Below, piece by piece: positions 12,252-36,100 of a DNA stretch of 64,000 nt (position 1 is the stretch's first letter; every line of letters starts with the position of its first letter). The position numbers were made by a program, and so were the translations under genes. The notes beneath the pieces were generated by a model that had not been told where the DNA came from, did not search any database, and was given only the letters and a program-made list of their open reading frames with translations. Origin of the DNA: Escherichia coli (GTDB lineage: Bacteria; Pseudomonadota; Gammaproteobacteria; Enterobacterales; Enterobacteriaceae); the NCBI RefSeq assembly GCF_024700885.2, contig NZ_CP117014.1, one strand, 5' to 3'.

Positions 12252-12674
12252 ATGAGTTCGTCTGCTTTTGTCACTGTTGTCACTGGAGTAAGCGTTTTTG
12301 TCCTAGGTCGACTCATCATCAAGGGGGTTGAGTCTTACATTTCATTCAAGGAACAGTTGGGGGAAATATCGCATCTGTTATTGTCTAACCAAGCAAAGCT
12401 ATCGAATCCCCGCTCTGACTTAAAACAAGAAATCATCCATGATTTGAAAGATGCGGCAGCACAGTTACGGGTGAAGTACGAACTATTACCTTTCTATATC
12501 AAAATGTTACACATCGGTTTTCGCCTTGTTCCATCAGAAACTGAAATTCGTAAAGCGGCGCAAGAATTGAATCTGATAGCCTCGATACATGATGGTAAAA
12601 CCGGAGAGCTGCCATATGAGCACATAGCCAAGATTGGATTACTGCTCAGAATTCCAACCACTTATTCTGCTTAA
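12252..12674 (+). CDS. orphan AT-rich gene, N-terminal TM protein
   Basis: 140 aa; hydrophobic N-terminus SSAFVTVVTGVSVFVLGRLII; visibly AT-richer than its flanks; sits between humD and phd. Confidence 0.45.
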   Translation: MSSSAFVTVVTGVSVFVLGRLIIKGVESYISFKEQLGEISHLLLSNQAKLSNPRSDLKQEIIHDLKDAAAQLRVKYELLPFYIKMLHIGFRLVPSETEIRKAAQELNLIASIHDGKTGELPYEHIAKIGLLLRIPTTYSA

Positions 12675-12782
12675 TCCCAGCAATTGCAAGACTGCATCTC
12701 GAGGATTTAAGGCACCAAGAAGTGGTATTCAGCATCATTAAAACCTATAATTGCGTACACATAACGAGCACACGAGGTGTTT

Positions 12783-13004
12783 ATGCAATCCATTAACTTC
12801 CGTACCGCGCGCGGCAACCTTTCTGAAGTGCTCAACAATGTTGAAGCCGGGGAAGAGGTTGAAATCACCCGCAGAGGCCGTGAGCCAGCAGTAATTGTCA
12901 GCAAGGCTACTTTTGAAGCCTACAAAAAAGCGGCGCTGGATGCCGAATTTGCATCCCTGTTTGACACCCTGGACTCCACCAACAAGGAACTGGTTAACCG
13001 ATAA
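12783..13004 (+). CDS. phd: Phd antitoxin
   Basis: [49 protein letters not shown]... matches P1 Phd (73 aa) as I remember it; start trimmed from ORF 12777. Confidence 0.95.
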
Positions 13005-13384
13005 TGAGGCATATATCACCGGAAGAACTTATTGCGCTTCATGATGCGAATATAAGCCGCTACGGCGGCCTGCCGGGAATGTCAGATCCGGGTAGGGCAG
13101 AGGCCATTATCGGGAGAGTTCAGGCCAGAGTTGCCTACGAAGAGATCACCGACCTTTTCGAAGTCTCCGCCACCTACCTGGTGGCTACGGCGAGAGGGCA
13201 TATATTCAATGATGCCAATAAGCGTACCGCGCTAAACAGTGCGCTGCTATTTCTACGCCGTAACGGTATACAGGTATATGATGATCCCGTGCTGGTGGAG
13301 CTTGCAGTGGGGGCTGCAACTGGTGAAATCCCCGTATCTTCAGTAGCGAAAAAACTACGTGAACTATATGGTTCCAATATTTGA
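13004..13384 (+). CDS. doc: Doc toxin (Fic-fold kinase)
   Basis: 126 aa; [11 protein letters not shown] Fic-like motif; ATGA-coupled to phd as in P1. Confidence 0.95.
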
Positions 13385-13386
13385 AA

Positions 13387-13414
13387 AGAAGCCCGCTCAA
13401 CCAGGCGGGCTTCT
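13387..13414. terminator. bidirectional stem-loop terminator
   Basis: AGAAGCCCGC-tcaaccag-GCGGGCTTCT between convergent doc and the 364-aa gene. Confidence 0.6.
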
Positions 13415-13419
13415 TACTA

Positions 13420-14514
13420 TCACTCAATGATTTTTTCTGCTGTCAGCCAGCTAATTTCTTGCCTGTCTTTCGGCGGTTTTAGCATGTGGGCGTATTCAGC
13501 GACATTCTCCCACGGAATTGTTTTTGCCCACTCAACGATAGCATTGTGATCTGCAGTGAAGAGTGGAATGGTGTGCGATTTCAACCATTCTAATGTCGTG
13601 ACGCCATGTTTTTTGGCGTGGTGCTGCGCATGATGCCGGGCTATCACTCGTAATGGTATTGTCCATTCACTACCATCAGGCATCGAAAAGCGCATTGTCT
13701 TCGGCATATCTGATTCAAGAACAGCCTCCCTAATACCAGGGAACTCACCAAGAATCATACGACGATAGTCATCACTATTTCGCCCGCCATACCTTTCGGC
13801 AAAATGATCAAGATATTCTTGGGTAATAAATGGTGAATCCTCCGCACTCAGCTTAATGGCTTTATATACACCACTCGGATTATCTTCAGCTAAAGCACGT
13901 CCATGATGTGAATCATAAAAAAAGCCTATTTCCTCTGGTGACGGAATTGAAGTGAGCAATATGCGTGAATCACCACTAGTCATGCTTGCCCACACAATGC
14001 TGTATGCCCGATCGCTGATATGTGCGGAATCCACAATAATGAATAAAAGATGGTCGGCGTAGTGACCTGCAATGCTATCTTCATAGTTAAGGCGGAAGTT
14101 ACAAAAGCACATTCCCCAAAATTCATTGAACATCAGACCGCTATCACCGACCTTAAAATACTCAATGATAAAAGGTTGTTTTTTCAGCAATGCCTCCCAA
14201 CATTGCCACACATATGCAACAATTCCTCTTTTGCAAACATTTGATTTTGGATAAACAATTACTGTCCGGGAATCAGGATACATAATCGTATAAAGGGTAC
14301 TAATAACAGCAAGCACTTGCGGTCGTCCGATCCCATACGGAGTGGTGACAGTAGCTTTTGCATTATTGGGCTGTATAGCTTCAACAATTTGTTGTTGCTG
14401 GTGGCTTAAATCAATATCAAACAATTCTTTTGCTGCCAGTACCCAATTGTCTTTATATTTCTCCACCAGCGACAGCCAGCGCGGATCTTTATAAATATTG
14501 CTCTTAGTCGCCAT
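13420..14514 (-). CDS. PacB-like terminase ATPase-domain paralog with degenerate Walker motifs
   Basis: Start set to MATKSNIYKDPRW (overlaps the upstream stop: ATGGCGACTAA). Aligns by eye to PacB residues ~10-265 (DPRW, SHQQQQI, YFYDSHH, SPF.T, YGGR). Walker A GHGTGKS becomes PYGIGRP and Walker B LDEAS becomes VDSAH. The C-terminal ~100 aa is unrelated to the PacB nuclease half. Confidence 0.6.
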   Translation of the reverse strand: MATKSNIYKDPRWLSLVEKYKDNWVLAAKELFDIDLSHQQQQIVEAIQPNNAKATVTTPYGIGRPQVLAVISTLYTIMYPDSRTVIVYPKSNVCKRGIVAYVWQCWEALLKKQPFIIEYFKVGDSGLMFNEFWGMCFCNFRLNYEDSIAGHYADHLLFIIVDSAHISDRAYSIVWASMTSGDSRILLTSIPSPEEIGFFYDSHHGRALAEDNPSGVYKAIKLSAEDSPFITQEYLDHFAERYGGRNSDDYRRMILGEFPGIREAVLESDMPKTMRFSMPDGSEWTIPLRVIARHHAQHHAKKHGVTTLEWLKSHTIPLFTADHNAIVEWAKTIPWENVAEYAHMLKPPKDRQEISWLTAEKIIE

Positions 14515-15271
14515 CTGCCACTTCCTTAACTTCTTCTTTGGCCTGTTCTGCAATCGCCGCACGGCATTTCGCCCTGGCTGTAGCGATTGCTTCAGCTCGC
14601 ACATCGTCTGGAATCGTTGACGTGATATACATATCCAGTTCTTCGGCACGGAATACTGTTTGGTCCAGATATTCGCGTAGCATCCAGGTAAATTCGAAAT
14701 CACACGCGATAATCTCTGCGCTACCTTCTGCACCATTTGGGAAATGAATAAATGCCTGTTTAGCCAAACCGATAACACGACATGCGGTTGCCAAAACAGC
14801 GACAACTAGGTTTACATTTTCACACGCTACGGGCTGGTTAACGCCGGAGATTACTCCATTTAACTGTCGGTTATATGGAAGGTAGTTTGAGATGCGTTCT
14901 ACGCGCCATGTGCCAGTCAGGCTGCCATTTTTAAATATAATTGGTGTAACGGATAGCCCAAGCTCGCGTATAAGTCGTTGCGCTATAGCAGGATCATTAA
15001 ACAGGTCTAATGCTACACATTCGAAAGACTGCGCAAGGGCAAACAGTTCTTCCAGAGAGTAGTCTTTGCCCCTGGCGGTGATGTAACGACGAACGCCGCT
15101 GTCTGCATCACTCCATATAGCTACGCCATGCTCTTCATTCAGCTCTTCATTAAAGCCGAGATACGTCATGATAGTGCGTTCAATCGTGTCAAACGGCAGT
15201 GACATGTCGGCGTTAACAGCCACCAGCAGGCCATTACGCAAGCGGTATTGAATTGTTTTAGTGCTTTCCAT
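14504..15271 (-). CDS. hypothetical protein coupled to the PacB paralog
   Basis: 255-aa ORF; no motif recognised; its stop overlaps the start of the downstream gene. Confidence 0.5.
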   Translation of the reverse strand: MESTKTIQYRLRNGLLVAVNADMSLPFDTIERTIMTYLGFNEELNEEHGVAIWSDADSGVRRYITARGKDYSLEELFALAQSFECVALDLFNDPAIAQRLIRELGLSVTPIIFKNGSLTGTWRVERISNYLPYNRQLNGVISGVNQPVACENVNLVVAVLATACRVIGLAKQAFIHFPNGAEGSAEIIACDFEFTWMLREYLDQTVFRAEELDMYITSTIPDDVRAEAIATARAKCRAAIAEQAKEEVKEVADGD

Positions 15272-15277
15272 GTCAAA

Positions 15278-15718
15278 TCACTCCACAACAAACCAGTCAC
15301 AGGCCAGCAGGTCGCCAACTGAAGGCACCCACGGAACAACTACACCTTGTGCATTTTTTAAGGCGAAATAAGCACCATACGGAACGAGGTCGCCGGGGAA
15401 ATATCCCTTAATGGCTTCCATTCGTGCCGGGTACTGTCCTTCAGGAACCAGCCAGCAGAATTGGTTTTCGCCGTTCCACCCGCGTCGAGCAACTTTCTTG
15501 CCTTCCTTCAGCCACATCAGCGCGTCTGAAAAGTCGGCTGCTTCAAGGTCGATTTCTTCTTGCTGGGTGGTGATGCCACCAGCAGAAATAGTTACGCTCC
15601 CGGTAAGATTAATCATCACGCCGTTGTCATCCGTAATGATGACCGTGGTTCCATTTTTTTTGTGAGCTTTGTATTTGGGACGGAACTTAAAAAGCTCTTT
15701 CGTTGCCATGTTATTCAT
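15278..15718 (-). CDS. DUF2829 (Tad2-like) domain protein
   Basis: C-terminal 85 aa FSDALMWLKEGKKVARRGWNG...VPWVPSVGDLLACDWFVVE fits the DUF2829 signature (A..LK.GKKV.R.GW ... D.LA.DW.V) from memory; extra ~60-aa N-terminus. Confidence 0.65.
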   Translation of the reverse strand: MNNMATKELFKFRPKYKAHKKNGTTVIITDDNGVMINLTGSVTISAGGITTQQEEIDLEAADFSDALMWLKEGKKVARRGWNGENQFCWLVPEGQYPARMEAIKGYFPGDLVPYGAYFALKNAQGVVVPWVPSVGDLLACDWFVVE

Positions 15719-15732
15719 AGTCTTTTCTCTGC

Positions 15733-16227
15733 TTATAACTTTTCGTACTGAAGCGGTGAACGCTTAATTTCAAAGTGGCCTTCCGATGTGCTACCAAAGC
15801 CACCAGCACCACGCTCCGTTTCGTTGAGTTCCTCAACCTCGACTAGTGAGACTTGTTCAACACGCTCAAAAATTCCTTGCATGACAGCCATTCCAGGCTT
15901 GAGACAAACGCCTTCCCCGCCGGGATCAGTAATCAGTTTTGCCATGATTTCGCCGCGATAATCGGAGTCGATAATTCCTACGCAGTTAGCCAGGCGAGTA
16001 TGTTTTTTGCAGCCCAATCCTGATCGCGGATAGAGTTTCAGACACCAGCCGGGCGGGATCTCCATAGCCAGTCCGGTATACACCCACCAGCTTGAGGAAA
16101 TTGCACCATTGCTATCGACGCATGGTTTTATTTCAACAGCCTCAAAATCCATCGCCGCCGATCCGGAGGTGGCATAAGCTGGAAGTTTTGCTGCCGGATG
16201 TAGGCGTTTCACTTTTACGTAAATCAT
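15733..16227 (-). CDS. dut: dUTPase
   Basis: 164 aa; GIIDSDYRGEI and RGAGGFGSTS trimeric dUTPase motifs. Confidence 0.8.
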   Translation of the reverse strand: MIYVKVKRLHPAAKLPAYATSGSAAMDFEAVEIKPCVDSNGAISSSWWVYTGLAMEIPPGWCLKLYPRSGLGCKKHTRLANCVGIIDSDYRGEIMAKLITDPGGEGVCLKPGMAVMQGIFERVEQVSLVEVEELNETERGAGGFGSTSEGHFEIKRSPLQYEKL

Positions 16228-16706
16228 TGTTTTTTAGCTCTCTGCGTGAAGGTGTAAACCCGACGTTTGATATGTGGAACGGTAGGAACAGGAAGACAGG
16301 AACTTTCAATAACTCCTTGCTCATCCAGCGATCGCACCGCCCGCAAGAACTGCGACGTGTCGCCGCCAAACTGGCGGGCATAGGTGCTGCCGTTATGAAG
16401 TATTTGAGCTATTACCCGAGTTTTTGTCTGGCTGTCACGATATGCGAATAGCCGCACGGCCTCTTCTGGCGCAATCGCTAACTGATAGCCTTTCCCGGCA
16501 CGGTGTCGAATGAATCCATGCGCCAGTAGGTTTTTGAGTTCGTTACGAGTGCGAACAGATCCGTAACCCAGGAAGTGTGGATTGATAACGACTGGCTTAA
16601 ACCATTCCGTAGGTGCTTTAGCTAATAGAGCTAACAGCTTCCCGGATAATTCTGGATAGGAAGACGGGTAACAATTCAGAGATGGGTAATAAGTTTTCAC
16701 CGACAC
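16224..16706 (-). CDS. hypothetical protein with two winged-helix-like segments
   Basis: 160 aa; NELKNLLAHGFIRHRAGKGYQL and FLRAVRSLDEQGVIES. Confidence 0.45.
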   Translation of the reverse strand: MSVKTYYPSLNCYPSSYPELSGKLLALLAKAPTEWFKPVVINPHFLGYGSVRTRNELKNLLAHGFIRHRAGKGYQLAIAPEEAVRLFAYRDSQTKTRVIAQILHNGSTYARQFGGDTSQFLRAVRSLDEQGVIESSCLPVPTVPHIKRRVYTFTQRAKKQ

Positions 16707-17041
16707 CCCCTTGCAGGATATCGACCGGCATTAGTATCCGGTGCAATAAAGCCGGTAGTGGGGCGAGTGAAAGCGAGATTAATCTTCTCGACCATAGTGC
16801 GATAATTTTCCTGATAGTGGGCCAGGAGTTTTTCGGCGGCAATGATGGTTACTTTCCGGACGTAGCTTTCTGCTTCCTCCAGATTTCGCCAGTTTTTTTC
16901 GAGGGTAAACACAGGGACGGCCTCAAGCCCGGTCATGATGCCGAACACAACGACAGCATGACTGTTCTTAACACCAGCGGCGAAGGTTACGGTGTAACCA
17001 TCCACCTTGAAGCGTCTTGATTCCGTGATTTGACTCTGCAA
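16697..17041 (-). CDS. hypothetical protein, first gene of the operon downstream of dre
   Basis: 114-aa ORF overlapping the next gene by 10 nt; operator copy 4 lies upstream. Confidence 0.4.
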   Translation of the reverse strand: MQSQITESRRFKVDGYTVTFAAGVKNSHAVVVFGIMTGLEAVPVFTLEKNWRNLEEAESYVRKVTIIAAEKLLAHYQENYRTMVEKINLAFTRPTTGFIAPDTNAGRYPARGCR

Positions 17042-17099
17042 AGCACCCTCCTAAATAGGCGAGGGTACTTTACAGCAAAGGCGTTAATCTAAAAAGATG

Positions 17100-17113
17100 T
17101 GTTAGAAATTTAA
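17100..17113 (+). promoter_or_regulatory. operator-like 14-mer, copy 4
   Basis: TGTTAGAAATTTAA between the dre stop (17115) and the 114-aa gene start (17041). Confidence 0.5.
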
Positions 17114-17114
17114 T

Positions 17115-18143
17115 TTACGAATCCATCAGGCGGCTATTAGCCCCCACAGACACGCCGCCACGGCGAAGATACCGCATAAGTGTTTCCGGTTTCTTCCAGG
17201 TTCCTTCCTGCATGATCTCCACCATAGACACCTGCTTTTCAGCCATATCAATAGCGGCCCCGACGCGTGCACTATGCCCGGTCCACGTCCGGTATCTTCC
17301 TTTGTTTGGCGTAGCATCTCTTTTATTCAGCAACACCCAGGCGTCGCTGAATATTTTCTCCATTGCAGGTGCAGTAAGGGGCGTTGTCGTGATCCTGGCC
17401 TTATTGCTACGGTGTATCGGCGGGAACAGCACTGCGTCAGGATGTTCGCGAAGCCCGGAAACATCCAGCCAGTCATTCAGCACAGCGGTAGTGCGACGGG
17501 AAAGCACCTTATCAAGCCCGGCGGCGGTCGTTATTGTCTTCGTGTGTGAAATATGTAGCGTGACAGTGTCACCTGTTTGATCCAGATCTCCTACACGAAT
17601 ACGCGAGATTTCCGACATACGCATCAGCGTATTGTATGCAACAAAGAGAAAAGCCCGGTTGCGCAGGTCCACCAGCCGTTCTGACCTGGACAACAGGACG
17701 TCGAGCAGTTTCAGATCGTCCCACCGAAGCGGTATAGCCTGGCCTGTTCGTTCGCCTTTTTCAGTTGCCGCTTCGCGCCGGATGCGCCGCATAGCCAGAG
17801 AAACACTTTTATCATCCGAAAGTGGCGGAAGGCCACAATGCGAAAGCAGCATATTCAGCATGGCGTAGTGCTTATCAATGGTGGTCGAAGCCAGATCGGC
17901 ATCATGCAGCTGAAGAAAATACTCGCGGGCCATTTCTGGTGAGATCGGAAACCAGGCAAGCTGGCGAGCGTGACACCAGCGCGCCCATGAATGAAACACC
18001 AACCGGAGGTCGCGCAGAGTATTCGGCGCATAAGCCCCCTGGTCATTCATGAACCGCATAAAGTTTTCTGCAGCCTCCTGGTACTCTTTGCCAATGTTGC
18101 GCAGAAAACCACCGGAGCTGCCAGAGATAATTAATTCACTCAT
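17115..18143 (-). CDS. dre: Dre tyrosine recombinase (Cre homolog of phage D6)
   Basis: 342 aa; aligns along its length to P1 Cre (WFP..PE....Y, VSL.MRRIR.E, AYNTL.R..EI.RIRV.D, GHSARVGAA.DMA); begins MSELIISGSSGGFLRN as I recall for Dre; cognate rox site 150 bp upstream. Confidence 0.9.
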   Translation of the reverse strand: MSELIISGSSGGFLRNIGKEYQEAAENFMRFMNDQGAYAPNTLRDLRLVFHSWARWCHARQLAWFPISPEMAREYFLQLHDADLASTTIDKHYAMLNMLLSHCGLPPLSDDKSVSLAMRRIRREAATEKGERTGQAIPLRWDDLKLLDVLLSRSERLVDLRNRAFLFVAYNTLMRMSEISRIRVGDLDQTGDTVTLHISHTKTITTAAGLDKVLSRRTTAVLNDWLDVSGLREHPDAVLFPPIHRSNKARITTTPLTAPAMEKIFSDAWVLLNKRDATPNKGRYRTWTGHSARVGAAIDMAEKQVSMVEIMQEGTWKKPETLMRYLRRGGVSVGANSRLMDS

Positions 18144-18295
18144 GAAACTATTTAACCTCTATATACAGATAACGCTACGCGAAAAATATAAAAATGACAG
18201 GGTAGCTATAAGTTAATTTTCAAGATTCAAGCCTTTGATTCGAGGCGCGTATTTTCAGTGATGTCAATACTGATCATCTACCCATAATTATAGCC

Positions 18296-18327
18296 TAACT
18301 TTAAATAATGCCAATTATTTAAAGTTA
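18296..18327. other. rox recombination site
   Basis: TAACTTTAAATAAT-GCCA-ATTATTTAAAGTTA: perfect 14-bp inverted arms around a 4-bp spacer, identical to the published rox site as I remember it. Confidence 0.9.
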
Positions 18328-18422
18328 TAAAATGCCGATTTTTTTTAATCCATCATAGATTGATGATGACCAGTAACACGTTGCCTTCATGGTCTTTAAT
18401 TTGCGAAGTGTGGTTTCTACGG

Positions 18423-18436
18423 TTGGTTTTCTAAAA
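18423..18436 (-). promoter_or_regulatory. operator-like 14-mer, copy 5 (degenerate)
   Basis: Minus strand reads TTTTAGAAAACCAA; between rox and the ORF at 18538. Confidence 0.3.
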
Positions 18437-18509
18437 TTGATGACAAAAAATCACAGTTCGATCCTTTACTCACTCTGTTATTCGACATAAATTTGTCATA
18501 GTAATTTTA

Positions 18510-18523
18510 TGTTAGAAAACTAA
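18510..18523 (+). promoter_or_regulatory. operator-like 14-mer, copy 6
   Basis: TGTTAGAAAACTAA, 15 bp upstream of the ATG at 18538. Confidence 0.5.
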
Positions 18524-18537
18524 ATCGAGTAGGAATA

Positions 18538-19575
18538 ATGAGTAAGAAGTCGATCGAGAAAGAGTACAAACGGTTCCTGCAAACCGCTGAACGGTGGAAA
18601 GAGCTGGTGGTCGCAAACTCTGTTTTCCATGATACCAGTTATGCTGGCGAGGAATTCCGCCATGTTGCATTAACGCATGACCAAAACATATTAGAAGAAG
18701 CTGAAAAATGTCTTGCTGAATGGAAAGCCTTCGTTGACATGTGCCGCGATGCCGACGGCAAAGCGTCGAACATTGTTGAGTCTGTATATTCTCCGATCCC
18801 ATTCATCATTGAGGACACCAATCAAAGCACGCATGTCGTTGTGCAAAGCGCTACAACAACACGTACATTTACACGTGAACAATTGCTAAAAAAATACGAC
18901 AAAATCATAAAGAAAAGCCTTAAAAATAGGGTTTTTTCTCAAATCGTAGGTGATCTTGAAGAAGAACAGCGCTTCTTTGAAGCTGAGCCTGAAGGCGAGA
19001 TCTACCGGGCGCGTAAAGAGGCATATACAGATGTTGTGCTGACAACAAACATCGAAGGCAGCAATGCCCTTTCTCGCTTTAGAGTTGGCGCACATGGTGC
19101 ATTGGTTTTCGCAAGACTACCGAAGACAACGATCCCCGTTGTCAATAATGTTGGTGAACGCCGGAGCATTACAATTTATTCTGGCGTCGAATCGGTACCT
19201 TGCAGCCTTCTCGGCGATTTTAACTTATATCGTGTTCGTGACCTGGAAAAACACCAGCCAAGCTATGTTGCGAAGTCGTACATCTTAAGGAACATCGATA
19301 TTCGCAATGAAAGCCTTAAGCAGAAATCCGCTAAGATGCTGGAGGATGCCGATCCGGCTATTCGCCATATCATTGAGCGTAAGATACGTACATCACGTGA
19401 AGCAATGGCAAGGCTGGATAAAATGGATCTGGAATTGTTAGACGTAATGATGGCCTCTGGAGACGACCTGACCGGCATTAAACTGAATGAAGCTCGTAAA
19501 AAATACGGCAAAGCAATCGAAGAACGTTACGGATACACATTCCCCCAAACGCAGTACGCCGCGAAGCTCTGGTAA
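18538..19575 (+). CDS. hypothetical protein at the c1-equivalent position
   Basis: 345 aa; sits between rox and the 3' end of pacB, where P1 has c1; two operator copies upstream; no sequence similarity to P1 C1 visible to me. Confidence 0.5.
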   Translation: MSKKSIEKEYKRFLQTAERWKELVVANSVFHDTSYAGEEFRHVALTHDQNILEEAEKCLAEWKAFVDMCRDADGKASNIVESVYSPIPFIIEDTNQSTHVVVQSATTTRTFTREQLLKKYDKIIKKSLKNRVFSQIVGDLEEEQRFFEAEPEGEIYRARKEAYTDVVLTTNIEGSNALSRFRVGAHGALVFARLPKTTIPVVNNVGERRSITIYSGVESVPCSLLGDFNLYRVRDLEKHQPSYVAKSYILRNIDIRNESLKQKSAKMLEDADPAIRHIIERKIRTSREAMARLDKMDLELLDVMMASGDDLTGIKLNEARKKYGKAIEERYGYTFPQTQYAAKLW

Positions 19576-19584
19576 TCACAACCG

Positions 19585-19605
19585 GCCCCGCATCGCGGGG
19601 CTTTA
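19585..19605 (+). terminator. stem-loop terminator
   Basis: GCCCCGC-atc-GCGGGGC followed by TTT; between convergent genes. Confidence 0.6.
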
Positions 19606-21111
19606 TATATCCAGATCCGGCATTTCGATATCCGCCAGAACCTGATCTCGGAAAGTTGCCATTTCGGCACCAATATCTTCATTAGCAGGCACATAGTCCA
19701 CCAGCATAGTGAAGCAGTAGGTATCCCATCGGTCAGGCGATTTGATGTTTAGCTTTTGCCGCATGTGCTCTTTGCGCATCATCGCCATTTTCCCTTCTTC
19801 ATTCAGTAAAAAGGGGATTTTTGACGCTTGCTCTGCCGTTTTAGGGTCACTGTCTATCCGCATACGCCCTGACTTTATGGCATCACGCGCCATAATGTTT
19901 GCGTAGGCACGCTGATTAACAAATCGCTCCCTGTCTTTGTTCGCAAACATGGGTTTTCCCCACCGAATACGTACCGGGTTCGCACCACGACGCACCAACT
20001 GCGCACACGTATCAGAACCAAAACCATCAGCATCAACCGCGATTGTTATATTCGGGTATTTTTCCGGCGTACATTCGTTATATATGAAGTCAGCAAAGGC
20101 CAATGGGTCCATAGTGCCAGGCATCTCCATTACCTTAAAGTTAACAACGCGCCGCTTATCCCTGTGACCTGATACCTTGCAGATGTTGAGGACCGACTTA
20201 TCTCGCCCATTACCAACGTCAGCCGTTGCCACCCATCCCCAGTTTTTCTCCAACAACACCTTGCGGCGAGCAGAGCGATCGCATTCATCACGACCAAGCA
20301 AATAGCCGTTAATTTCTCGTGGGAACTGACCAAGCACCTTGACCATGTACTCAATAGAATCGCGCCCACCATATTCCAGAAGCTTCTCCTTGATGAATTG
20401 TGGTGTGACGAACGGTGATTCTTCCGAGTTAAGAACAATTGCTGTCCAGATCCCTTTCGGGTTGTCTGGGGTTTTTGCTCGAGAATGGTGCGAATCGTAG
20501 AAATAACCACTTGGCCTTGTTGGCTGGGATAGCATCAACATCCGGTTATCTTCTTCAGTAAGAGCACCGGTCATTACGCCGATCGCCTTATCAGATATAC
20601 CAGATGCTTCATCCAGAATTAGAAGCAAATGTGCCGCGTGTTCCCCCGCCAGCGCTTCTTCGTTGCCGAGTCGATAACCTTTGCAGAGAACTTCCCAAAT
20701 CCCCTTACGGGAGCGCTCATAAAACATGGTGTCAGAGAGGACAAAATAGGTCTGCAACCACCCATGACGCTTAACTGCATTCGCCCAATACTGTTTAACG
20801 TATTTGAATACGCCTGTTTTTACCTGGCCTATCTTGTTAGCAACAATGATGACACGGGCATCGGGGAACAGGATCATAAAAATCAACAGCAACATCGCGG
20901 TAAGGGACGACTTCCCCGTTCCGTGTCCGGACGTGACGGTCGTCCTACTCCCCGTTTCCTGCACTGACTGAATGATCTGCTGCTGCTGGTGGGAGGGGAA
21001 CATCCCAAAAATATCGACTACAGCCTGGGTAAAGTTGTAGCGGTATTTGATTACCATATCGCGCCAGCGTGGATCGCTGGTGACGCATTTAATCTTGCGC
21101 CCGCCAGCCAT
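19603..21111 (-). CDS. pacB: terminase large subunit PacB
   Basis: 502 aa; Walker A GHGTGKS, Walker B LLILDEAS; follows pacA with an ATGA-type overlap as in P1. Confidence 0.85.
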   Translation of the reverse strand: MAGGRKIKCVTSDPRWRDMVIKYRYNFTQAVVDIFGMFPSHQQQQIIQSVQETGSRTTVTSGHGTGKSSLTAMLLLIFMILFPDARVIIVANKIGQVKTGVFKYVKQYWANAVKRHGWLQTYFVLSDTMFYERSRKGIWEVLCKGYRLGNEEALAGEHAAHLLLILDEASGISDKAIGVMTGALTEEDNRMLMLSQPTRPSGYFYDSHHSRAKTPDNPKGIWTAIVLNSEESPFVTPQFIKEKLLEYGGRDSIEYMVKVLGQFPREINGYLLGRDECDRSARRKVLLEKNWGWVATADVGNGRDKSVLNICKVSGHRDKRRVVNFKVMEMPGTMDPLAFADFIYNECTPEKYPNITIAVDADGFGSDTCAQLVRRGANPVRIRWGKPMFANKDRERFVNQRAYANIMARDAIKSGRMRIDSDPKTAEQASKIPFLLNEEGKMAMMRKEHMRQKLNIKSPDRWDTYCFTMLVDYVPANEDIGAEMATFRDQVLADIEMPDLDI

Positions 21112-22475
21112 TAATCATCCTCCGGCGGTTCTATCGCGATATCATCATCTCCGGCGTCATACCCTGCATCAGATGCATCATAATCACCGTAAATTTCAGC
21201 CGTTGCCGAAGGGTCAATATCCAGCTCTTCGTCGTTGGCCTCGAATTCTCCAGCTTTACGCTCGCCATTGCGGTCGTAATCTCCGCACCCCAATTCTTCA
21301 ACAATGGTTGCCACATCCGCCCGGCGCTCTGCCAGCCATTGCGGATGGTTAGCCTGAAGCGTTGCAAACTCCCTTGCCTCTTTGTCCAGCTGTTCATCAT
21401 CAACATCATTGACGTCAGAAACAGGTGGTTCGAGAAGAGTGATAGCTTTCGCCGCGCGCGCCGCGAGGATAGCCGGGACGCTGACACCCTGGCGCTCGAT
21501 GTATTCAGCAACACCGATATCATCCAGTTCCTCGCGCTCACGCATACGTATAGCGGCGGCGATAACTCTGGCTGCGCGTGCGTCAGCGCCAATGCGATAT
21601 TCAATCTCTTTGCCACGCTGTTCGGCCTGTAGGCGTGCTAATTCGAGTTTTTCTCTGGCCTCAGCCTCTTTGAATGCTTGCTGGCGAGCGCTCTGACGAA
21701 GCTTTTCATCCCCCTGTCGCAGCTTTTGTTCGGACTGATATATAGCTGCCAACCTACTGATAAAATCATTCATGTAGTAGGCCGCGTCACTGATTAGACC
21801 GAGAAGGCGCTGCCCAGGGTGCATTCCTTCTGGCTCTTTATCGCCCAAGGCGTCTATTTCCGCCTGTAGACGTTCGGCCTCCTGATCAACAATGCTTTGA
21901 TACTGAAGTGCGCGCTCTTGCGCCATTTGAATTGCTAACCGCAGGTGTTCTTCTGCGCCGTTCTTCATCATATCGCGAGCCACATTCGTAGTTGGCAATG
22001 TGGCACGCTGCACAGCACCGTCAGGGATCATTGCAGAAGATCCCTCAATTTTTGGGGCGTTTTTATCTTCTTCGGGGATCATTTTCGCCATTTTTTCGCG
22101 CAATGATCTCCTGACAGATTCTTTTATCTCATTGTTATTATTTGAATTATTTTCATGATCCGAAGTTTTCTTTCTCGGCATACTTCGGAAAGAACCTGCG
22201 CCCTGCGAATTGTCAATTTCTGTAAATTTTGTTTTTTCTGCACCCTCTTCCAGCTTTTTTGTTGCTCTTCCCGCCCGTTTTTTTTCAGGTGATTTGGTGC
22301 TTTTTTTTGTTGTCTTTACCTGCGACCGCACCTCATTTTTTTTCATATTGAGATGCTTTCTGGCTGTATTGAAGCTAAGGCCATGCTCCTCACAGTATTC
22401 CTTTACAGTGATCCCTTTTTCTTCACGCAACGCTATAAAGCGGGCGCGGTGCTCCTCCCAATTAACCAGACTCAT
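21111..22475 (-). CDS. pacA: terminase small/pac-recognition subunit PacA
   Basis: 454 aa; N-terminal HTH-like EYCEEHGLSFNTARKHL, charged middle, acidic C-terminus; immediately upstream of pacB. Confidence 0.7.
   Translation of the reverse strand: MSLVNWEEHRARFIALREEKGITVKEYCEEHGLSFNTARKHLNMKKNEVRSQVKTTKKSTKSPEKKRAGRATKKLEEGAEKTKFTEIDNSQGAGSFRSMPRKKTSDHENNSNNNNEIKESVRRSLREKMAKMIPEEDKNAPKIEGSSAMIPDGAVQRATLPTTNVARDMMKNGAEEHLRLAIQMAQERALQYQSIVDQEAERLQAEIDALGDKEPEGMHPGQRLLGLISDAAYYMNDFISRLAAIYQSEQKLRQGDEKLRQSARQQAFKEAEAREKLELARLQAEQRGKEIEYRIGADARAARVIAAAIRMREREELDDIGVAEYIERQGVSVPAILAARAAKAITLLEPPVSDVNDVDDEQLDKEAREFATLQANHPQWLAERRADVATIVEELGCGDYDRNGERKAGEFEANDEELDIDPSATAEIYGDYDASDAGYDAGDDDIAIEPPEDD
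22026..22160. other. candidate pac site (GATC cluster inside pacA)
   Basis: Five GATC within 135 bp (22026, 22039, 22077, 22105, 22157), mostly as TGATC(N) hexamers; P1 pac is a Dam-regulated TGATC(A/G) cluster inside pacA. Confidence 0.3.
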
Positions 22476-22972: not shown

Positions 22973-23365
22973 CTACCAGCTAGACAAACGAACAACATGT
23001 TTCACTTTTGCGATCCACTGTCCGCGATAACTATTGATTACGGCCTGTGCCAGCTTCAAATTGGCTTCAAAATCAGCCTTACTACCATCAGACTCCACCA
23101 GCATTCCTCCATCTATTTCTGGTAAACATAGATAATCCTGCTCAACCTGCAGCGGCATTGATGGCTCTCTGAATGGGGTTACTTGCTCTGCTTTCCAGCG
23201 AAATCTAACCCTTATCCCCCTGGTGGTCATTACTAGATAGCCTGTTATAGTGCTTTTATGGCCCACATCAGTACGCGTGGCATTGCATGACTCGATCTTA
23301 CAGTTAGCGATAGACCACTCCATATTGGTGGCCTGTTGAGTGCTTAATTTGGTAGTCCCGTACAT
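22973..23365 (-). CDS. hypothetical protein (pdcA position)
   Basis: 130-aa ORF, ATGA-type overlap with the upstream gene. Confidence 0.4.
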   Translation of the reverse strand: MYGTTKLSTQQATNMEWSIANCKIESCNATRTDVGHKSTITGYLVMTTRGIRVRFRWKAEQVTPFREPSMPLQVEQDYLCLPEIDGGMLVESDGSKADFEANLKLAQAVINSYRGQWIAKVKHVVRLSSW

Positions 23366-23940
23366 CAGAAAGCCTCCCAGTCAGTCGCGATAATATCCAC
23401 ACCAGTTGCAAACCAGTCTGTCTGCGCCTGTAAATCCCCATTCATCATTACCAGGCGAGGCATCACCATCACATCGCACCCTTCCACAATATCGAATGCC
23501 TCTTCCGGCAAGAATTCGAAGAGCTTTTCTTTGCTGCCAATACTGCCACGGAACATCGATATATAGCTCCCTTTGGGCCATGATGTCCGCCGGGCATCAA
23601 GCCCTTTCATCATCCAGTAAAAAGCCGAGGAAAAAGGGATATTCTTTTTGCCAATGATTACATTATTCGCTTCTGTGTATTTCAGGAACTTAACTAACCT
23701 TACCATTGACTCGGATAACGCAACGTATGGCTCATGATTGATTGCTGACACGCTTACACCGTGCAATCCAACGCTTACCACTGTCATATCGCCGCTCTGT
23801 GCGGTTTCGATATTGACGCCTTTGCGAACTAATGAGGCGTAAATTTCCTCTCGCTTTTGGGTCCAGCGTTCACGCTTCCCTATGAAGTCACTCAAAATGA
23901 GATCTTCTTCTGTATATGCGTTATCGTTCGCCATTAACAT
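23365..23940 (-). CDS. protein with C-terminal DUF2829-like domain (pdcB position)
   Basis: 191 aa; FSSAFYWMMKGLDARRTSWPKGSYI...DWFATGVDIIATDWEAF follows the DUF2829 pattern. Confidence 0.5.
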   Translation of the reverse strand: MLMANDNAYTEEDLILSDFIGKRERWTQKREEIYASLVRKGVNIETAQSGDMTVVSVGLHGVSVSAINHEPYVALSESMVRLVKFLKYTEANNVIIGKKNIPFSSAFYWMMKGLDARRTSWPKGSYISMFRGSIGSKEKLFEFLPEEAFDIVEGCDVMVMPRLVMMNGDLQAQTDWFATGVDIIATDWEAF

Positions 23941-30120: not shown

Positions 30121-33100
30121 TTAGGCCGCATCGGCGATTATTTTACGCAGTTCATCTACCGAGTAACGCGTAGATACCATCCATGCAGGACGGTCAAAGT
30201 TCACATCAGCAACCGGGTTTGCTTCAAAATTCCAGAAACGTCCGCCAATCTTCTTAATCGCGTCTTTGGCGTTCCGTATTGTCGAGGAACCTGGTTGGTC
30301 GGCAATGAGATAAACCGCGCCAACGTCCTCGCTGACGCTCCACCAGCGCCCGCGAACACGCGCCTTAGCGCGAATCGGCTTATCATTAACCACAATGATA
30401 TAGTCATCATTCGCCGCTTCATCAGCTCTGGCTTCAGCCACTGCCGCCTGCTCTTCTCTTTTGCTTTCAGCCTGCTCAAGCCTTTCCGCGATCTCTGATT
30501 CAGTGGCCCCGCCGTTTTTCAGCGATACATAGTCCTGCCACGTTGCCGATTTGAGCGTATCCGGCAACTCATTCACATAGTCGCCGTCTTTCAACTCACG
30601 GGCGCGGCGGGTAGCCATTTCTACCAGGCGATTAACAGAAACAGCATCAGCAAAATCGTCCTTACTAATGTGTTTTTCATCAAATGCATTGATGACAGCC
30701 CCCACCTTAATCCACTGTGCTGCCGGTGATTCCAGGGGGTTATCAGCCTGAACAATGGCGAGTTTCGCTCCATCTACCCCATTATTCGCCAGCTGTTCCA
30801 ATGCCGCCCATCCATCTGCATCACTGAGTGATTTATATTGCTCAAACAATGCATCGCGCCAGGCCACCAGCGCAGAACGTGTTTTTTCGATCTTCGCCTT
30901 AATTTTCGCGATCTTGACCTGATTAAACATCCGTTCAATATCATCGATATTGCTAAAGGCTTTCATCCTGCCCTGGAATAAACGGTATGCCAGCACGGTC
31001 CTCCAGAATGATTCCAGACCTTCTCCGGACGGTTTGCGGAACAAGCTAAGAATATCTTCAGAAGTGACTTTATTAAGCGAACGACCTGACAGACCACGCC
31101 CAGCCATCCAGTTTTCGAACTCATGGGCAACATCATCCATCGTTGCCTGTGCGCCCCATGCCTGCATTCCCTGGGTGTAATCATACCCATACAATGCCTG
31201 GAGGAATCCCTCGCCGTCCACGATATTCAGCGGGTTATCACTGGCTTGTATTTTTGCCACTTCACGCTTCAGCGCCTCGTCGTTGCCATCAGGATATATC
31301 CATCGCTCAGGTGCTATATCCGATGCTCGCCCGATTTTTTGGCCTATCACGCCATCATAGGCCGATGACAGCGCGATCTGACCATCATCTGTGCGATATG
31401 CCCAGTATTTAATAGCTGACCCACCGCCCCATGCATTACCAGGTTTACCAGCAATAACATTCATTACCCCATTGCGAATAGCATCATAGAACTGATCGCG
31501 AGTAAGTATTGTTGATAGCTGGTGGCACTGAACACCACGCGCAGCCGTTGCGCGCGATTCAGCTACCCCCTCTTCAAAAGTTACCGCTTCAATCACAGAG
31601 TCAAACGGCAATGTAACGATTGACCCCGGTGCTCGAGCGTAACGACTTGCTCTATCCAGCCAGGCGATACGGCAGAGGTATTGTGCTTTTTCACCGTCAA
31701 TTTTTTCCACCCGGACAATCGCTGTTGTTTCGCGATCATCAATGACTGCACGGTAATAACTACCTTTATGCAACAGGATATTCTTGTCAGTGCGCATATA
31801 TTCCTGTGGGTTCTGAATAACATCGATACTGATATCCAGCACACCAGACTTAATAGCGCGCTCCACCTCACCACGAGAGCGTTTCATTATGGTATCCGCG
31901 TCTTTTGCCCTGGTGATCGCAAACCGCAGCACCCGCGCACGTTTTCTGTAGCTACTCAACTGCTCAAGCGCGTATTTTTGCCCATTCCTGTTCGTACCCG
32001 CTTTTATCAGGTCGTCAAGATTGCGCTGGTAATACTCTATCTGTTCCATCGCGCTTTTCAGTTCTGTCTCCATCATGCCGATATCTTTTCCGGCGGCGTT
32101 TGCCGCTTTCAGGTAGATATCGAGAGCATTGTTGGCCTCGCGCTGTGCTTTCAGTTTCAGACGTTCTTCACGCTCTTGCGCCTGGCGAGCCATGATTGCG
32201 CGGCGTTCTTCCGGGTTTGCCGCCAGCATAATGGCGCGTTCATCAGCATCATCCGCATCACCATTGGCGATCTCTGACATGTCGGATGTCATCACCATCT
32301 TGATCCAGTCTTTCTTACGTTTCAGCGTATCCAGACGGAAGTCGTCGAATGTGCCTTTGCCACAATAGTAGTGAACATTGACCTTTTCTTGCGGTGAACC
32401 TACGCGCGCACCGCGCCCATTTCGTTGGTCGATACTGGCTGGTGTCCAGGGTAGTGTCAGGTGGTGGATATCGGTTGTCCCGATGTGCAGGTTAATACCT
32501 ACTTCAGCCTTCTTGTTACAGATTATGATGCGCGTGCGACCTTCGTTATAGTCGGCGGCAATACCTTCCATGCCCTCAAGGCCAGCATCATTTTTAGCGG
32601 AGAGATAATCCTCATATTGGGCAAGTTTGCTGTAGTAGGTTTCCCATGCCCCTTCTTTGTATTCACCGTTTTTGTTTGGAGTAGGTTCGGTCGGCTTATT
32701 CACCTTCTTCAGCTTGATGCCACCAGCCTGGCTAACTGTCGTCGCATTGATAATGCCAATCTCCTGCTCCGGCATTTGCAGTGCACTGGCGATAATACGG
32801 CGCAGCTTCTGGTGCTGGGCTTTTTCATCAATAAAGACGATCTGCTTACCGTTCTTCAGACCTTCACGAAGATTTTCGATCAGCGCGGCATACTTCGGCG
32901 GGATGGGGTGCGACACCTGCTGCATATCAATGCCGGCAGCCGCAATGGCCTTCAGTATTTCAGCTTCCAGTTCAATGCTGGCACGTATTTCAACATGCGT
33001 CGGATGTTCACTAAAAGCGGTCTTCACTACCTTGCTGGTACGCGTACTGACCAGCCCGCCAGCGCCGTCTTCCTCGGCCTCATCAACATCATCTGCCACT

Positions 33101-36100
33101 TTACCGCCAGCTACTTTTGGCAAGGCATCAGCAATAGCTTTTACCTGGTCTGCAAGCTCAACGGGGAACTGGAATGTAATCGCACTGGCATACAGATCCG
33201 GGTCTATAGCAACCTTATCCATGTCACGGATGATGGAGAAGATGAAATCATCCGGTTTGTCGTTAGTGATATGCCCGTTTTCATCGACTGTCAGCTCATC
33301 ATTGCGACTTAACTCCTGAGCACGCTTACGAAGCTCTTCATAAGCAGTCTCCTGCTCCCCTGTCATCGGGATCTGCAAGGTGTTCTCGATGATGTCGGGA
33401 ATTTTAACCGTCGCTCCGACATCTGCAGCAGTCTTCAGAGTGGTCCAACGATGGAAAATACCACGCAGGCCGTCAAGGTTCTGGAAGCCCACCAGCCCCT
33501 GCTTCTCTTCCACTTCCCCGGAAATTTTCTGGACCTGAACTGTGGCTGTTTTGCCAAACACACGAACGAAATCATCAGGCGTAATGATGCCCATGCGCAT
33601 CCACTCTTCCTGCGGAATGACAGTAGACAGCATGTTGAAGGCATCAATCGGACTGTTCACCAGCGGTGTTGCCGTCAGCATGACTACACCACGCCCGTTG
33701 TTGCGTTTCATCATGTACGCAGCTTTTACAGCCATGTCGCGGGCCATCTTGGATACTGCCGGGTTAGGCAAATATGCCAGTTGTCCCGCTTCACGCCCGG
33801 CATTAAAGGAGTTGCGGTAGTTATGCCCCTCGTCGGCAATCACGCTATCGAAGTTCATATCCTCAAAGTACGGGATATTCTGCTTCTTCGTTGTACCGGT
33901 ATTCGCGGCCTGATCCTTAATCTTGTTCTTCTTCTGCGCATCACGGTGTTTACCGGACGCCAGGTCAAGACGCCCCATTTCCACAGCATTAAAGACAGCT
34001 TGCTGTGAGTTCTCCTCGATGGTTTTTTCTCGTAGCGGGATAGACGCGAATTGTTCTTTTGTCATGATGACCGTTCGCCAATTTGACGACGGGATCATGT
34101 TCATGCGCTGAACGATAACGGCGCTGGCGGACTCTTTCACAACATTTCTGGTAAGAGGCTGCCCGTTACTGTCGAGGCGTGGTTCGCCATTTTCATCAAG
34201 CACCGGCGCGGTCAGAATATTTCCGCTGTCATCACGAACTTCATCCAAACCGATAAACATCATATTGGCGAAGGCATCAGCACTGTAGAAACTCTGTGCC
34301 TCGTGATACCAGTTCTGATAAACCGCCTTCGGAACAACAATACACGTGCGTTTAGTGCGACCTGTTTCGAAGTTATACGCCTCAAGCGCAAGCGCGGTCG
34401 TGGTTTTACCCAGCCCGGTACCAAATCCCATGATGCCGCGCCCATCTTCTGACAAGCTACGAACTTCTTCATTCTGATAAGTCAGAGGAATGCGCTTTCC
34501 ACTAATCCCTTCCAGGCCAAGCGGTGCGTTAGAGTGCGTGAACGGAATGAAGCCATTGAATGCGTCGTTATAGTCACGGGCTATCTGATCCGCCTGCGGG
34601 TGGGTGCGTAACCAGTCGTTAAAGCTAACTTCCAGTTGAGCAATTTTATCCAAGTACTCGTTAGCGTTCTGCCCACGCGGTTTAACACCGTTCAGGTAGT
34701 TTTCTAACTGGTTCAGGAAGCCGTCTTTATTGTTGGCCTTCTTGAACTCATTCCCGTTTTTGCCGTTTACGGTTCGTAGTTGATAGCCGGTAAATACCCC
34801 GTCCTTACCTTCGTAATCGTCCGGAGATACCAGAATGCCATCGACGACCTTCAGATCAGGTTCAGTGTACTTAAACTCGTCATAGCCCTGCTCTGCCAGG
34901 AACTCTTTTATCAAGCGGCGATCCAGCCAGCGGGCATTCAGATTAACGGTGACTTTATTTAGTGGCGTGAAAATGCGTTTCTCTTCGATTTTCGCCAACT
35001 GACGCTCAAAGTTCGCTTTCTGCTCACCTGTTGACGCATCACGCCAGCCCACCAGCAGTGCTGTTTTGGTTGCAACATCGCCGCTGGTGGCGCGGTCCAT
35101 CGGCAGCAGACAGCCATACCCATCAATAGCGATATCATCAAATTTCGCCAGGTATTCAAGGACCGCGTCGTCGTCCTCTGGCAGTTCACCAGCAAACGCC
35201 TCACGAAAGTCGCCCAGCGTTATAGGATTAAGGGCTACATCACTAAAAAGATGTGCTATCACTTGTTCAGGACGCGTAAAGTCAATACCGGCAGCACCAT
35301 CCGTTACATCAAGTCGCCCTGCCAGAAGGTCAGAAGTGGAACCATCCTGTTTCACATTGCCAGTGAACGTCATCCAGTTTTTAGCGCCAGCTTCAGCAAG
35401 CCCATTCAGCTTAATCGCGTGCGGTGGTCCATACTTCGCAACTTCTGCTGCCGCCAGGCGGGATGCATCTGCCAGTTTGTCATCAACGTTCACCCCCAGG
35501 TTACGCAAATCAAGTGCCTTGTTGATCAACTGACCTATCAGTGCACCGCGCATAACGCGCTCCCTGTCTTTTTCTCGCTGCTTGCCAGCAAAGCGAATCA
35601 TTGCTGCCACTTCATCACTGACAACCGATGGATAGTCGGACGCGATCGCCGATATCTGGTCCCATGACAAAGCCAGAATCCCGTTTGTTGACTGGAACGC
35701 GATCTGCAGATCGCCAAACGTCGAAACACCATATCGACTTACATCAAGCGCGGAGGATTTGGTTGTCGTGTCCTTAACCCATTTCAGACCATCAAACTCA
35801 TGCCAGATACCGCCTACAAGGCGTTTATCGCCCACTTTCGCGCCCTGCCATGCCTGAGTAGTTACGCCGAGCAAATCCCAATTGATGCGACTATCAAAGC
35901 GACGAGATAGCGCGGTTTTCATCGACTCATTGGATACACGACCGTCTTTTTTCACCACCAGGGTATTGCGGAAGCTGGTACGTTCCATGTCGCCGTAAAC
36001 AAATCGCTTCCCTTCGGTTGTAAACCATTTCCCTTTGAGGAAGGTATCCCAAAGGACGTTTGCCGATTTGAGCGTCGAATCATCCGTATCGGGGATCATC

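Follow-up and report, generated by a model that had tools for sequence, protein, structure and literature searches.

Why would a phage-plasmid that already encodes the terminase subunits PacA and PacB also carry, ~5 kb from pacA-pacB, a second gene resembling one half of pacB, placed inside a string of accessory genes and not beside the small-subunit gene? The question is raised by a 64-kb stretch of Escherichia coli DNA (the whole of which is referred to as the window) that is a D6-like, P1-type plasmid prophage. Its gene set includes the Dre recombinase, a C1-type repressor, PacA, PacB and phd-doc. The PacA, PacB and Dre proteins match their D6 counterparts at 99-100% identity, and E. coli plasmids such as NZ_CP074704 carry a stretch that is 99.7% identical. 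The product of the second gene, hereafter the paralogue, is an old copy of PacB's ATPase domain with a predicted dead ATP site, no nuclease and a fused domain of ~100 amino acids (aa). It lies directly downstream of a homologue of the P1 gene isaA, and the features on which the argument rests are the following.

13420-14514, minus strand: pseudo-terminase gene (the paralogue), 364 aa; Walker-dead, nuclease-less PacB ATPase paralogue with an accessory domain.
13735-14514, minus strand: ATPase-like N-terminal domain (N-domain) of the paralogue, aa 1-260; behaves as a hypervariable allele cassette (alignment, motif census, identity matrix and a sliding ratio of non-synonymous to synonymous substitution rates, dN/dS).
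13423-13731, minus strand: C-terminal tail domain of the paralogue, aa 262-364; member of a family of stand-alone phage proteins of ~100 aa.
14504-15271, minus strand: isaA homologue, 255 aa; conserved alpha/beta core and variable acidic C-terminal tail.
14504-14527, minus strand: coupling junction, with the Shine-Dalgarno sequence AAGGAAG at 14527-14521, the paralogue ATG at 14514-14512 and the isaA TAA at 14506-14504.
19603-21111, minus strand: resident PacB gene, with intact SGHGTGKS and ILDEAS and the nuclease half; PHROG terminase matches; 99% identical to D6 PacB.
21111-22475, minus strand: resident PacA gene; PHROG terminase matches; 99% identical to D6 PacA.

A sequence-only reading of the window had proposed that the 364-aa product is homologous to the N-terminal ATPase half of the resident PacB, that both of its Walker motifs, A and B, are degenerate, and that the nuclease half has been replaced by an unrelated tail. 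All three proposals were borne out. In a BLASTP comparison with the resident PacB, 96 of 258 positions are identical (37%, E 6e-57), with aa 7-259 of the paralogue aligned on aa 10-264 of PacB, and the blocks DPRW, SHQQQQI, FYDSHH, ESPF, YGGR and G.FP (also NPxG) are common to the two proteins. Conservation between dead and live proteins extends to the first ~45 residues and to several motifs specific to PacB. Terminase homology was also recovered by profile searches: both proteins match phrog_5902 (E 8.6e-165 for the paralogue, 3.3e-152 for PacB) and the large terminase (TerL) family phrog_2 (E 9.4e-09 for the paralogue), and hhalign of a profile of dead paralogues against a profile of the live PacB family, built from 40 sequences, gave a probability of 100% and an E value of 2.5e-68. 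The live profile in turn matches the solved Sf6 gp2 large terminase (4idh, E 8e-16). Because this alignment places SGHGTGKS of PacB on Walker A, and DEAS on Walker B together with the catalytic glutamate, the original assignment of both motifs stands. At these positions the paralogue reads TPYGIGRPQ and IIVDSA, so that neither the Walker A lysine nor the Walker B aspartate is present; an RNase H-like nuclease domain is missing as well. Past aa ~260, neither BLASTP nor alignment with PacBs and other alleles revealed similarity to the PacB nuclease half, and a separate domain family occupies this part of the protein. Other dead alleles carry GIGQKT, GIGHKS, GIGETS, GVGMHT and similar strings at Walker A, none in register; in all dead alleles the Walker B aspartate position holds V, T, A, M, I or P, and the position of the catalytic glutamate holds D, E, N, Q or H. 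Pfam and NCBIfam gave no significant match for the paralogue or IsaA, and single-sequence and shallow-profile searches of PDB sequences gave no match, solved TerLs being reached only by the 40-sequence live profile. Existing database entries call the paralogue a "hypothetical protein" or, wrongly, a "terminase large subunit".

The gene itself is well delimited. The open reading frame (ORF) runs on the minus strand from the ATG at 14514-14512 to the TGA at 13422-13420 and encodes 364 aa; its frame overlaps that of isaA by 11 nucleotides (nt), with the junction sequence ATGGCGACTAA, and the Shine-Dalgarno sequence lies 6 nt before the ATG. Translational coupling to the upstream gene, proposed earlier from the overlap of start and stop, is supported by this arrangement. 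Of the 13 closely related IMG/VR loci, 12 keep the junction ATGGCGACTAA and one (L056) reads ATGGTAACTAA; four IMG/VR loci with ~64% identical alleles have a different isaA-paralogue junction. Since a Shine-Dalgarno sequence is present and the N-terminus is conserved across alleles, ATG 14514 is taken as the true start. Two longer readings were rejected, a 461-aa one from a TTG at 14805 in the mechanical ORF list and a 438-aa database call (P0002); in both, the extension overlaps isaA out of frame.

The simplest answer to the opening question would be that the gene is what remains of a duplicated pacB and is being lost, as its missing catalytic motifs and nuclease half and its absence from many relatives might suggest. 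The ORF is intact, as the earlier reading had held, and it is uninterrupted in 17 of 17 IMG/VR loci, the 13 closely related ones keeping the same degenerate motifs. The mean ratio of non-synonymous to synonymous polymorphism (pN/pS) is 0.12 over 45 pairs of distinct alleles from these loci, and pairwise dN/dS is 0.06-0.17 among D6-type and 0.33-0.47 among P1-type alleles. Among 748 plasmids holding a PacB-like match, taken as the set of P1/D6-like plasmids, ~162 carry the full-length paralogue, every listed full-length match being a single piece, and ~78% do not carry it. The allele of the window is present at full length in 35 of 5426 complete E. coli genomes and in part in 56 more; all of these matches are on plasmids, with one copy each. 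Because the gene is intact in all the IMG/VR loci, has a low pN/pS and occurs as single-piece plasmid copies, it is, by these measures, maintained and not decaying. The conserved Shine-Dalgarno sequence and coupled start, and the gain of a second domain, also speak against a remnant. The frequent frameshifts among relatives that a pseudogene would display were not found, and the evidence on selection and intactness in effect refutes decay, to which we assign a negligible probability.

The age of the paralogue points the same way. An exhaustive search of 1.84 billion representative proteins returned, among the best matches, ~114 terminases of 450-570 aa with intact GTGKS and DEAS motifs and ~20 proteins with neither motif, all of which also lack the nuclease half. 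These dead paralogues are 230-270 aa long, or longer with a different C-terminal domain, and many are ~260 aa without any tail. A neighbour-joining tree, built on distances and carrying no support values, groups 12 of the 14 dead representatives into a single clade separate from the live PacBs; its branches are about as deep as those that divide terminases from different phage groups. Alleles of the dead clade are 34-76% identical, and all have open frames and the same domain boundary, a depth and regularity at odds with progressive loss. The tree thus suggests that Walker-dead, nuclease-less PacB paralogues mostly belong to one old clade.

If the gene is selected, its most obvious employment would be in the packaging of its own phage, where the protein could titrate PacA or cap PacB and thereby prevent premature pac cleavage or tune headful packaging. 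The paralogue is related to the resident PacB, retains its N-terminal region and is encoded ~5 kb from pacAB. The N-terminal region of the large terminase binds the small subunit in lambda gpA and T4 gp17. A regulator of this kind, which the sequence-only reading had entertained, is disfavoured by comparison of nine D6-like elements, for which identities range as follows.

PacB halves: 91-100%.
PacA: 74-100%.
Dre: 89-100%.
IsaA: 68-100%.
Paralogue tail: 85-100%.
Paralogue N-domain: 50-100%.

The N-domain is the most variable of these, and its identity correlates only loosely with that of PacA or PacB (r = 0.25-0.36), so that the alleles do not co-vary with the resident terminase. Between the elements NZ_CP104667 and L031, identity is 100% for PacA and PacB and 99% for IsaA but only 75% for the paralogue N-domain; between the window and the related contigs L032-34, the PacB N-halves are 97-98% identical and the paralogue N-domains 54%. 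D6, a viable phage with PacA and PacB 99% identical to those of the window, lacks the gene altogether, as do the ~78% of P1/D6-like plasmids without a full-length copy. CRISPR interference in P1 found isaA nonessential, and the reference P1 used in that screen has IS1 and isaB in place of the paralogue (PMC10695390). The identity matrix led us to reject the idea that the paralogue tracks resident PacA or PacB, and a role in the phage's own packaging appears very unlikely.

The same alignments indicate that the ATPase-like domain behaves as a hypervariable cassette and is exchanged without regard to the resident PacA and PacB. Nucleotide identity between the window and the NZ_CP104667 allele is 53-64% over codons 1-200 and 94-100% in the tail, a difference that places a recombination boundary near the domain junction. 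Within the cassette, codons 91-120 (~14155-14244, minus strand) form a hypervariable patch with a dN/dS of ~1 against 0.42 for the whole gene, as measured on two alleles whose elements do not differ in PacA or PacB. Since the cassette is exchanged independently of PacA and PacB, is dispensable in near-identical phages and sits with Tad2-like genes (see below), the target of the protein would be something other than its own terminase. And because it has no means to power DNA movement or to cut DNA, the paralogue probably acts by binding rather than by catalysis.

Binding may, of course, reside elsewhere in the polypeptide. Residues ~262-364 match the C-terminus of phrog_17928 and stand-alone proteins of ~100 aa, and a profile search with this domain returned at least 1272 clusters (at 90% identity) with no Pfam domain, all under the source name "hypothetical protein". 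The family consists mostly of stand-alone phage proteins whose genes, where the context is readable, lie in runs of small phage genes or in the nin or early-left accessory region of a lambdoid prophage; among the loci examined (L013-L021, L028), homologues also occur in Xanthomonas CP2-like phages and Cronobacter phage JK004. A confident AlphaFold2 model of the tail had no fold match in the PDB. The tail had been described as His-rich; this holds for the window, but the His-rich helix belongs to the P1/D6 lineage alone, and the wider family has the consensus IAxNRAxxYAxEFGGD there.

Neither is the upstream gene the unknown that it had been taken for. Its predicted product is a homologue of P1 IsaA: it matches phrog_2326 (E 9.7e-134), its aa 1-225 are 48% identical to P1 IsaA and 97% to D6 orf113 by tblastn, and orf113 is itself annotated as "similar to P1 gene isaA". 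The gene owes its name to the IS1 element that adjoins it in reference P1, and the isaA region is a recognized hypervariable region of P1-like phage-plasmids (PMC6906374, PMC9603915). IsaA combines a conserved core with a variable, strongly acidic, low-complexity C-terminal tail, e.g. EEQSDEVAADVEAEVAEDADADA (window 14504-14600). Elements that carry the paralogue and elements that do not have different isaA 3' ends; similarity between the two kinds of allele stops at aa ~225, so the recombination boundary falls within this end of the gene. The slot that follows holds IS1 and isaB in reference P1, pdcA in D6, and the dead paralogue in the window and in about one-third of isaA-bearing plasmids. 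In the wild P1 MH422554 it holds a 364-aa protein that is 51% identical to the paralogue over the full length, tail included. P1 IsaB was considered as a remnant of the paralogue and rejected, as it shows no similarity.

The two genes had been read as a pair. They are translationally coupled where they meet, but IsaA and the paralogue are not an obligate two-gene system, since each occurs without the other. The first gene is found without the second in D6, in reference P1 and commonly among plasmids (isaA in 471, the full-length paralogue in 162). Conversely, Citrobacter-type P1-like plasmids carry a dead paralogue of 263 aa between ref and mat (L005 5336-6792; L022 4333-5789), where it overlaps by 4 nt the stop of a gene for a Ref-family RecA-dependent HNH nuclease. 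Another dead paralogue lies 3' of a radical-SAM gene, and further ones are found in accessory runs with DUF551, Ead/Ea22, hot or umuC-like genes, or near parM.

These observations bear on the possibility that the terminase ancestry is incidental, the old fold having been reused as a scaffold or adaptor while most of the activity is in the tail or depends on IsaA. Such a division of labour would agree with a tail that is independent, very widespread and found alone in lambdoid and other phages with unrelated terminases. It would also agree with the conservation of the tail (94-100% nucleotide identity, protein identity as listed above) while the N-domain is swapped between CP104667/L031-type elements and the window, with a loose co-variation of IsaA and N-domain alleles (r = 0.51 over 28 element pairs), and with the distinct isaA 3' ends of elements with and without the paralogue. 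The many clade members of ~260 aa have no tail, however, and imply that the ATPase-like domain needs a function of its own; the separate occurrence of IsaA and paralogue argues against an activity that depends on both, and the conservation of PacB-specific surface motifs over a deep clade suggests that a terminase-like shape is under selection. We consider the scaffold explanation possible, if somewhat doubtful.

The gene neighbourhood provides the remaining evidence, and its features are as follows.

12777-13384, plus strand: phd-doc, convergent with the paralogue gene.
13391-13406, minus strand: terminator-like hairpin directly 3' of the paralogue stop, from a consensus scan and reading of the sequence (consensus match only).
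15278-15718, minus strand: Tad2-like (DUF2829) gene, Pfam PF11195 E 5.9e-23, 6 nt upstream of isaA.
15733-16227, minus strand: dUTPase gene (ORF list; Pfam dUTPase).
16224-16706 and 16697-17041, minus strand: two small ORFs (ORF list).
17115-18143, minus strand: Dre recombinase gene (ORF list; D6 annotation).
18287-18314, minus strand: sigma-70-like promoter match TTGGCA-16-TATAAT (11/12) before dre (consensus scan only).
23365-23940, minus strand: second Tad2-like (DUF2829) gene, 191 aa, Pfam PF11195 E 9.5e-10, just beyond lpa and pacA.

The leftward string from dre through the dUTPase, Tad2-like and isaA genes to the paralogue lies on one strand, with the paralogue last, and its genes overlap or are separated by at most 14 nt, with the sole exception of 73 nt after dre. 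The hairpin after the paralogue stop is likely the end of this transcription unit. The sole strong sigma-70-like match upstream of the string is the one preceding dre, a consensus match, and we infer that a promoter at this site would drive isaA and the paralogue. No RNA family was found by Rfam over 12500-18600. The stops of doc and of the paralogue are 35 nt apart (13385-13419), with the hairpin inside the gap; the 198-nt pdcA that follows doc in D6 is absent from the window, where the convergent paralogue gene stands on that side. Elsewhere in the window, an ORF of 2278 aa at 30121-36957 (minus strand) may match the giant methylase/DarB-like gene of P1-type phages.

The company of the paralogue is of a kind associated with conflict. 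One Tad2-like gene lies directly upstream of isaA and another at 23365-23940, and the family is named for an anti-defence protein. The order Tad2-like (DUF2829), isaA, paralogue recurs in D6-type and P1-type elements of E. coli and E. albertii, and in E. albertii P1-type plasmids it adjoins the hxr-ddrB end of the dar anti-restriction operon. The lambdoid accessory regions that house stand-alone tail homologues are a further setting of this type. In P1-type elements the isaA and paralogue genes follow ssb, which has a C1 operator. As observations on the Tad2-like genes themselves, two are present in the element of the window, and the related contigs L031-L034 show the same arrangement; the gene adjoining isaA in the window encodes the short form of 146 aa, as in D6, and related plasmids have forms of 216-233 aa with an extra segment of ~70-85 aa after the conserved N-terminus.

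Taken together, the lost catalytic residues, the apparently selected terminase-like shape and this setting make a binding-only mimic of the terminase ATPase domain, employed in conflict between phage and host or between phages, the most likely role of the paralogue. The decoy or inhibitor role suggested in the sequence-only reading is thus still plausible. The two forms of conflict would have different targets. Directed at other phages, the dead domain would be expressed from the prophage and would poison the packaging of a related phage or satellite while sparing the resident terminase, amounting to superinfection exclusion or anti-satellite activity; it could bind a PacA-type small terminase, join the PacB ring or occupy the portal of the incoming phage or satellite. 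The gene is indeed prophage-borne, in one string with dre and beside phd-doc, and a self-sparing weapon could evolve by just such presence/absence polymorphism and allele swaps independent of the resident terminase. The N-terminal ~45 residues and PacB-specific motifs shared by dead and live proteins would suit contacts of this sort, and there is precedent in TerI of a Listeria prophage, which binds the small terminase (TerS), and in SaPI Ppi, PICI RppA and Vibrio PLE Gpi (10.1101/2025.02.27.640495). Homology to TerI, Ppi, RppA or Gpi-type proteins is lacking, and none was expected. Against packaging interference stands the contrast between the PacBs of D6-like elements and the N-domains, which diverge to 50%; this divergence exceeds what discrimination among targets 91-100% identical to one another would need. 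No self-immunity partner is evident, and the position of the P1-type gene behind ssb, a repressor-controlled lytic gene, fits a role in the lytic cycle better than protection of the lysogen. Interference with rival packaging is therefore a rather doubtful candidate.

Directed at the host, the same protein would be a decoy for immune sensors, a reading that we slightly prefer to packaging interference. The terminase ATPase domain is the ligand of Avs2 and Avs3 of E. coli and Salmonella, and Upx senses it too; EcAvs2 is activated by the ATPase domain alone and contacts the ATP of the active site through a bridging ATP (PMC13601566). The nucleotide-binding residues are those that the paralogue has lost. 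By imitating the structure of the terminase ATPase domain, the paralogue would engage host proteins that recognize this domain, such as sensors of the Avs1-3 or Upx type, and would occupy them without the bound nucleotide that activation uses, so that the true PacB is shielded. The tail domain would add an independent binding function, and IsaA would be a linked neighbour and not an obligatory partner. Interception of host sensors of the terminase ATPase domain is the best explanation of the locus that we can offer, and it is offered tentatively. Its narrower version, in which the pseudo-terminase occupies Avs1-3 or Upx without activating them and the hypervariable cassette records the ensuing arms race, would be the first example of such a decoy; in that specific form we hold the proposal to be unlikely.

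Several points weigh against the sensor decoy. ATPase-only constructs and Walker B mutants of terminases mostly still activate Avs2 or Upx (PMC13601566), and a dead mimic could therefore trigger the sensors instead of blocking them. The step from a mimic to an immune-sensor decoy is an inference. Some alleles retain a displaced lysine followed by serine or threonine (GIGQKT, GIGHKS) and a catalytic glutamate (TEAA, AEAA), and residual nucleotide binding may persist in them. The Tad2-like (DUF2829) family is broad, which makes adjacency to its members weak evidence. PADLOC-DB 2.0 contained no match at E <= 1 for the paralogue or IsaA, an anti-defence protein library not having been searched. 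Regulatory support for expression as in P1 was likewise wanting: neither the P1 C1 operator consensus (with up to three mismatches) nor the P1 late-promoter pattern (-22 box and -10, derived from two annotated P1 late promoters) was found in the 64-kb window, both being absent even upstream of pacA. Because neither P1 pattern occurs, even before pacA, the regulatory sites of D6-type elements must differ from those of P1.

How the paralogue relates to known proteins can be stated more firmly. It shares a homologous N-terminal ASCE ATPase domain with PacB of P1 and D6, a Sf6 gp2-like TerL, and differs from it in having neither an in-register Walker A lysine nor a Walker B aspartate, in lacking the nuclease domain, in being encoded away from the small-subunit gene, in being dispensable and polymorphic for presence and absence, and in having an unrelated C-terminal domain. 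A similar case is T4 vs.8 (and, loosely, Ksap2), an extra nuclease-less ATPase-like protein that a phage with a TerL of its own encodes away from its packaging module (PMC13601566, PMC11564622). This stand-alone protein resembles the TerL ATPase, has intact Walker motifs and activates EcAvs2 (PMC13601566). In contrast to vs.8, a relative of T4-type TerL that keeps Walker A and Walker B, the paralogue is PacB-derived, has both motifs destroyed throughout its clade and often bears an added domain; the two are set apart here by description only. TerI, Ppi, RppA and Gpi resemble it as mobile-element proteins that bind TerS or TerL and block or redirect packaging, but TerI has 65 aa and a terminase origin is not claimed for any of the four (10.1101/2025.02.27.640495). 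The upstream gene agrees with P1 isaA over aa 1-225 and in its position within the same hypervariable region, and differs in what follows it, IS1 and the unrelated isaB in reference P1 against the dead paralogue in the window. The sequence-only reading knew of no described function, and none emerged from full-text literature on isaA/isaB, inactive or paralogous terminases, terminase pseudoenzymes and anti-Avs proteins, in which neither the paralogue nor its clade is described. Stand-alone accessory proteins resembling terminase ATPases are already known from vs.8; what is new is a PacB-derived form that is dead and often carries a fused domain.

No protein of tailed phages is more conserved than the large terminase, which is a main target of bacterial innate immune sensors as well as of interference proteins of satellites and prophages. 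A selected but apparently catalytically dead copy of the domain that sensors see, with a diversification that does not follow the real terminase, readily suggests itself as a candidate molecular mimic, and it is set among anti-defence-type genes of widespread phage-plasmids of E. coli and Salmonella. Should the paralogue prove to block sensors, it would represent a new anti-defence principle, and should it poison the packaging of rivals, a new principle of exclusion. Either way, a function would be gained for part of the long-unexplained isaA variable region and for a large and unannotated family of ~100-aa phage proteins.

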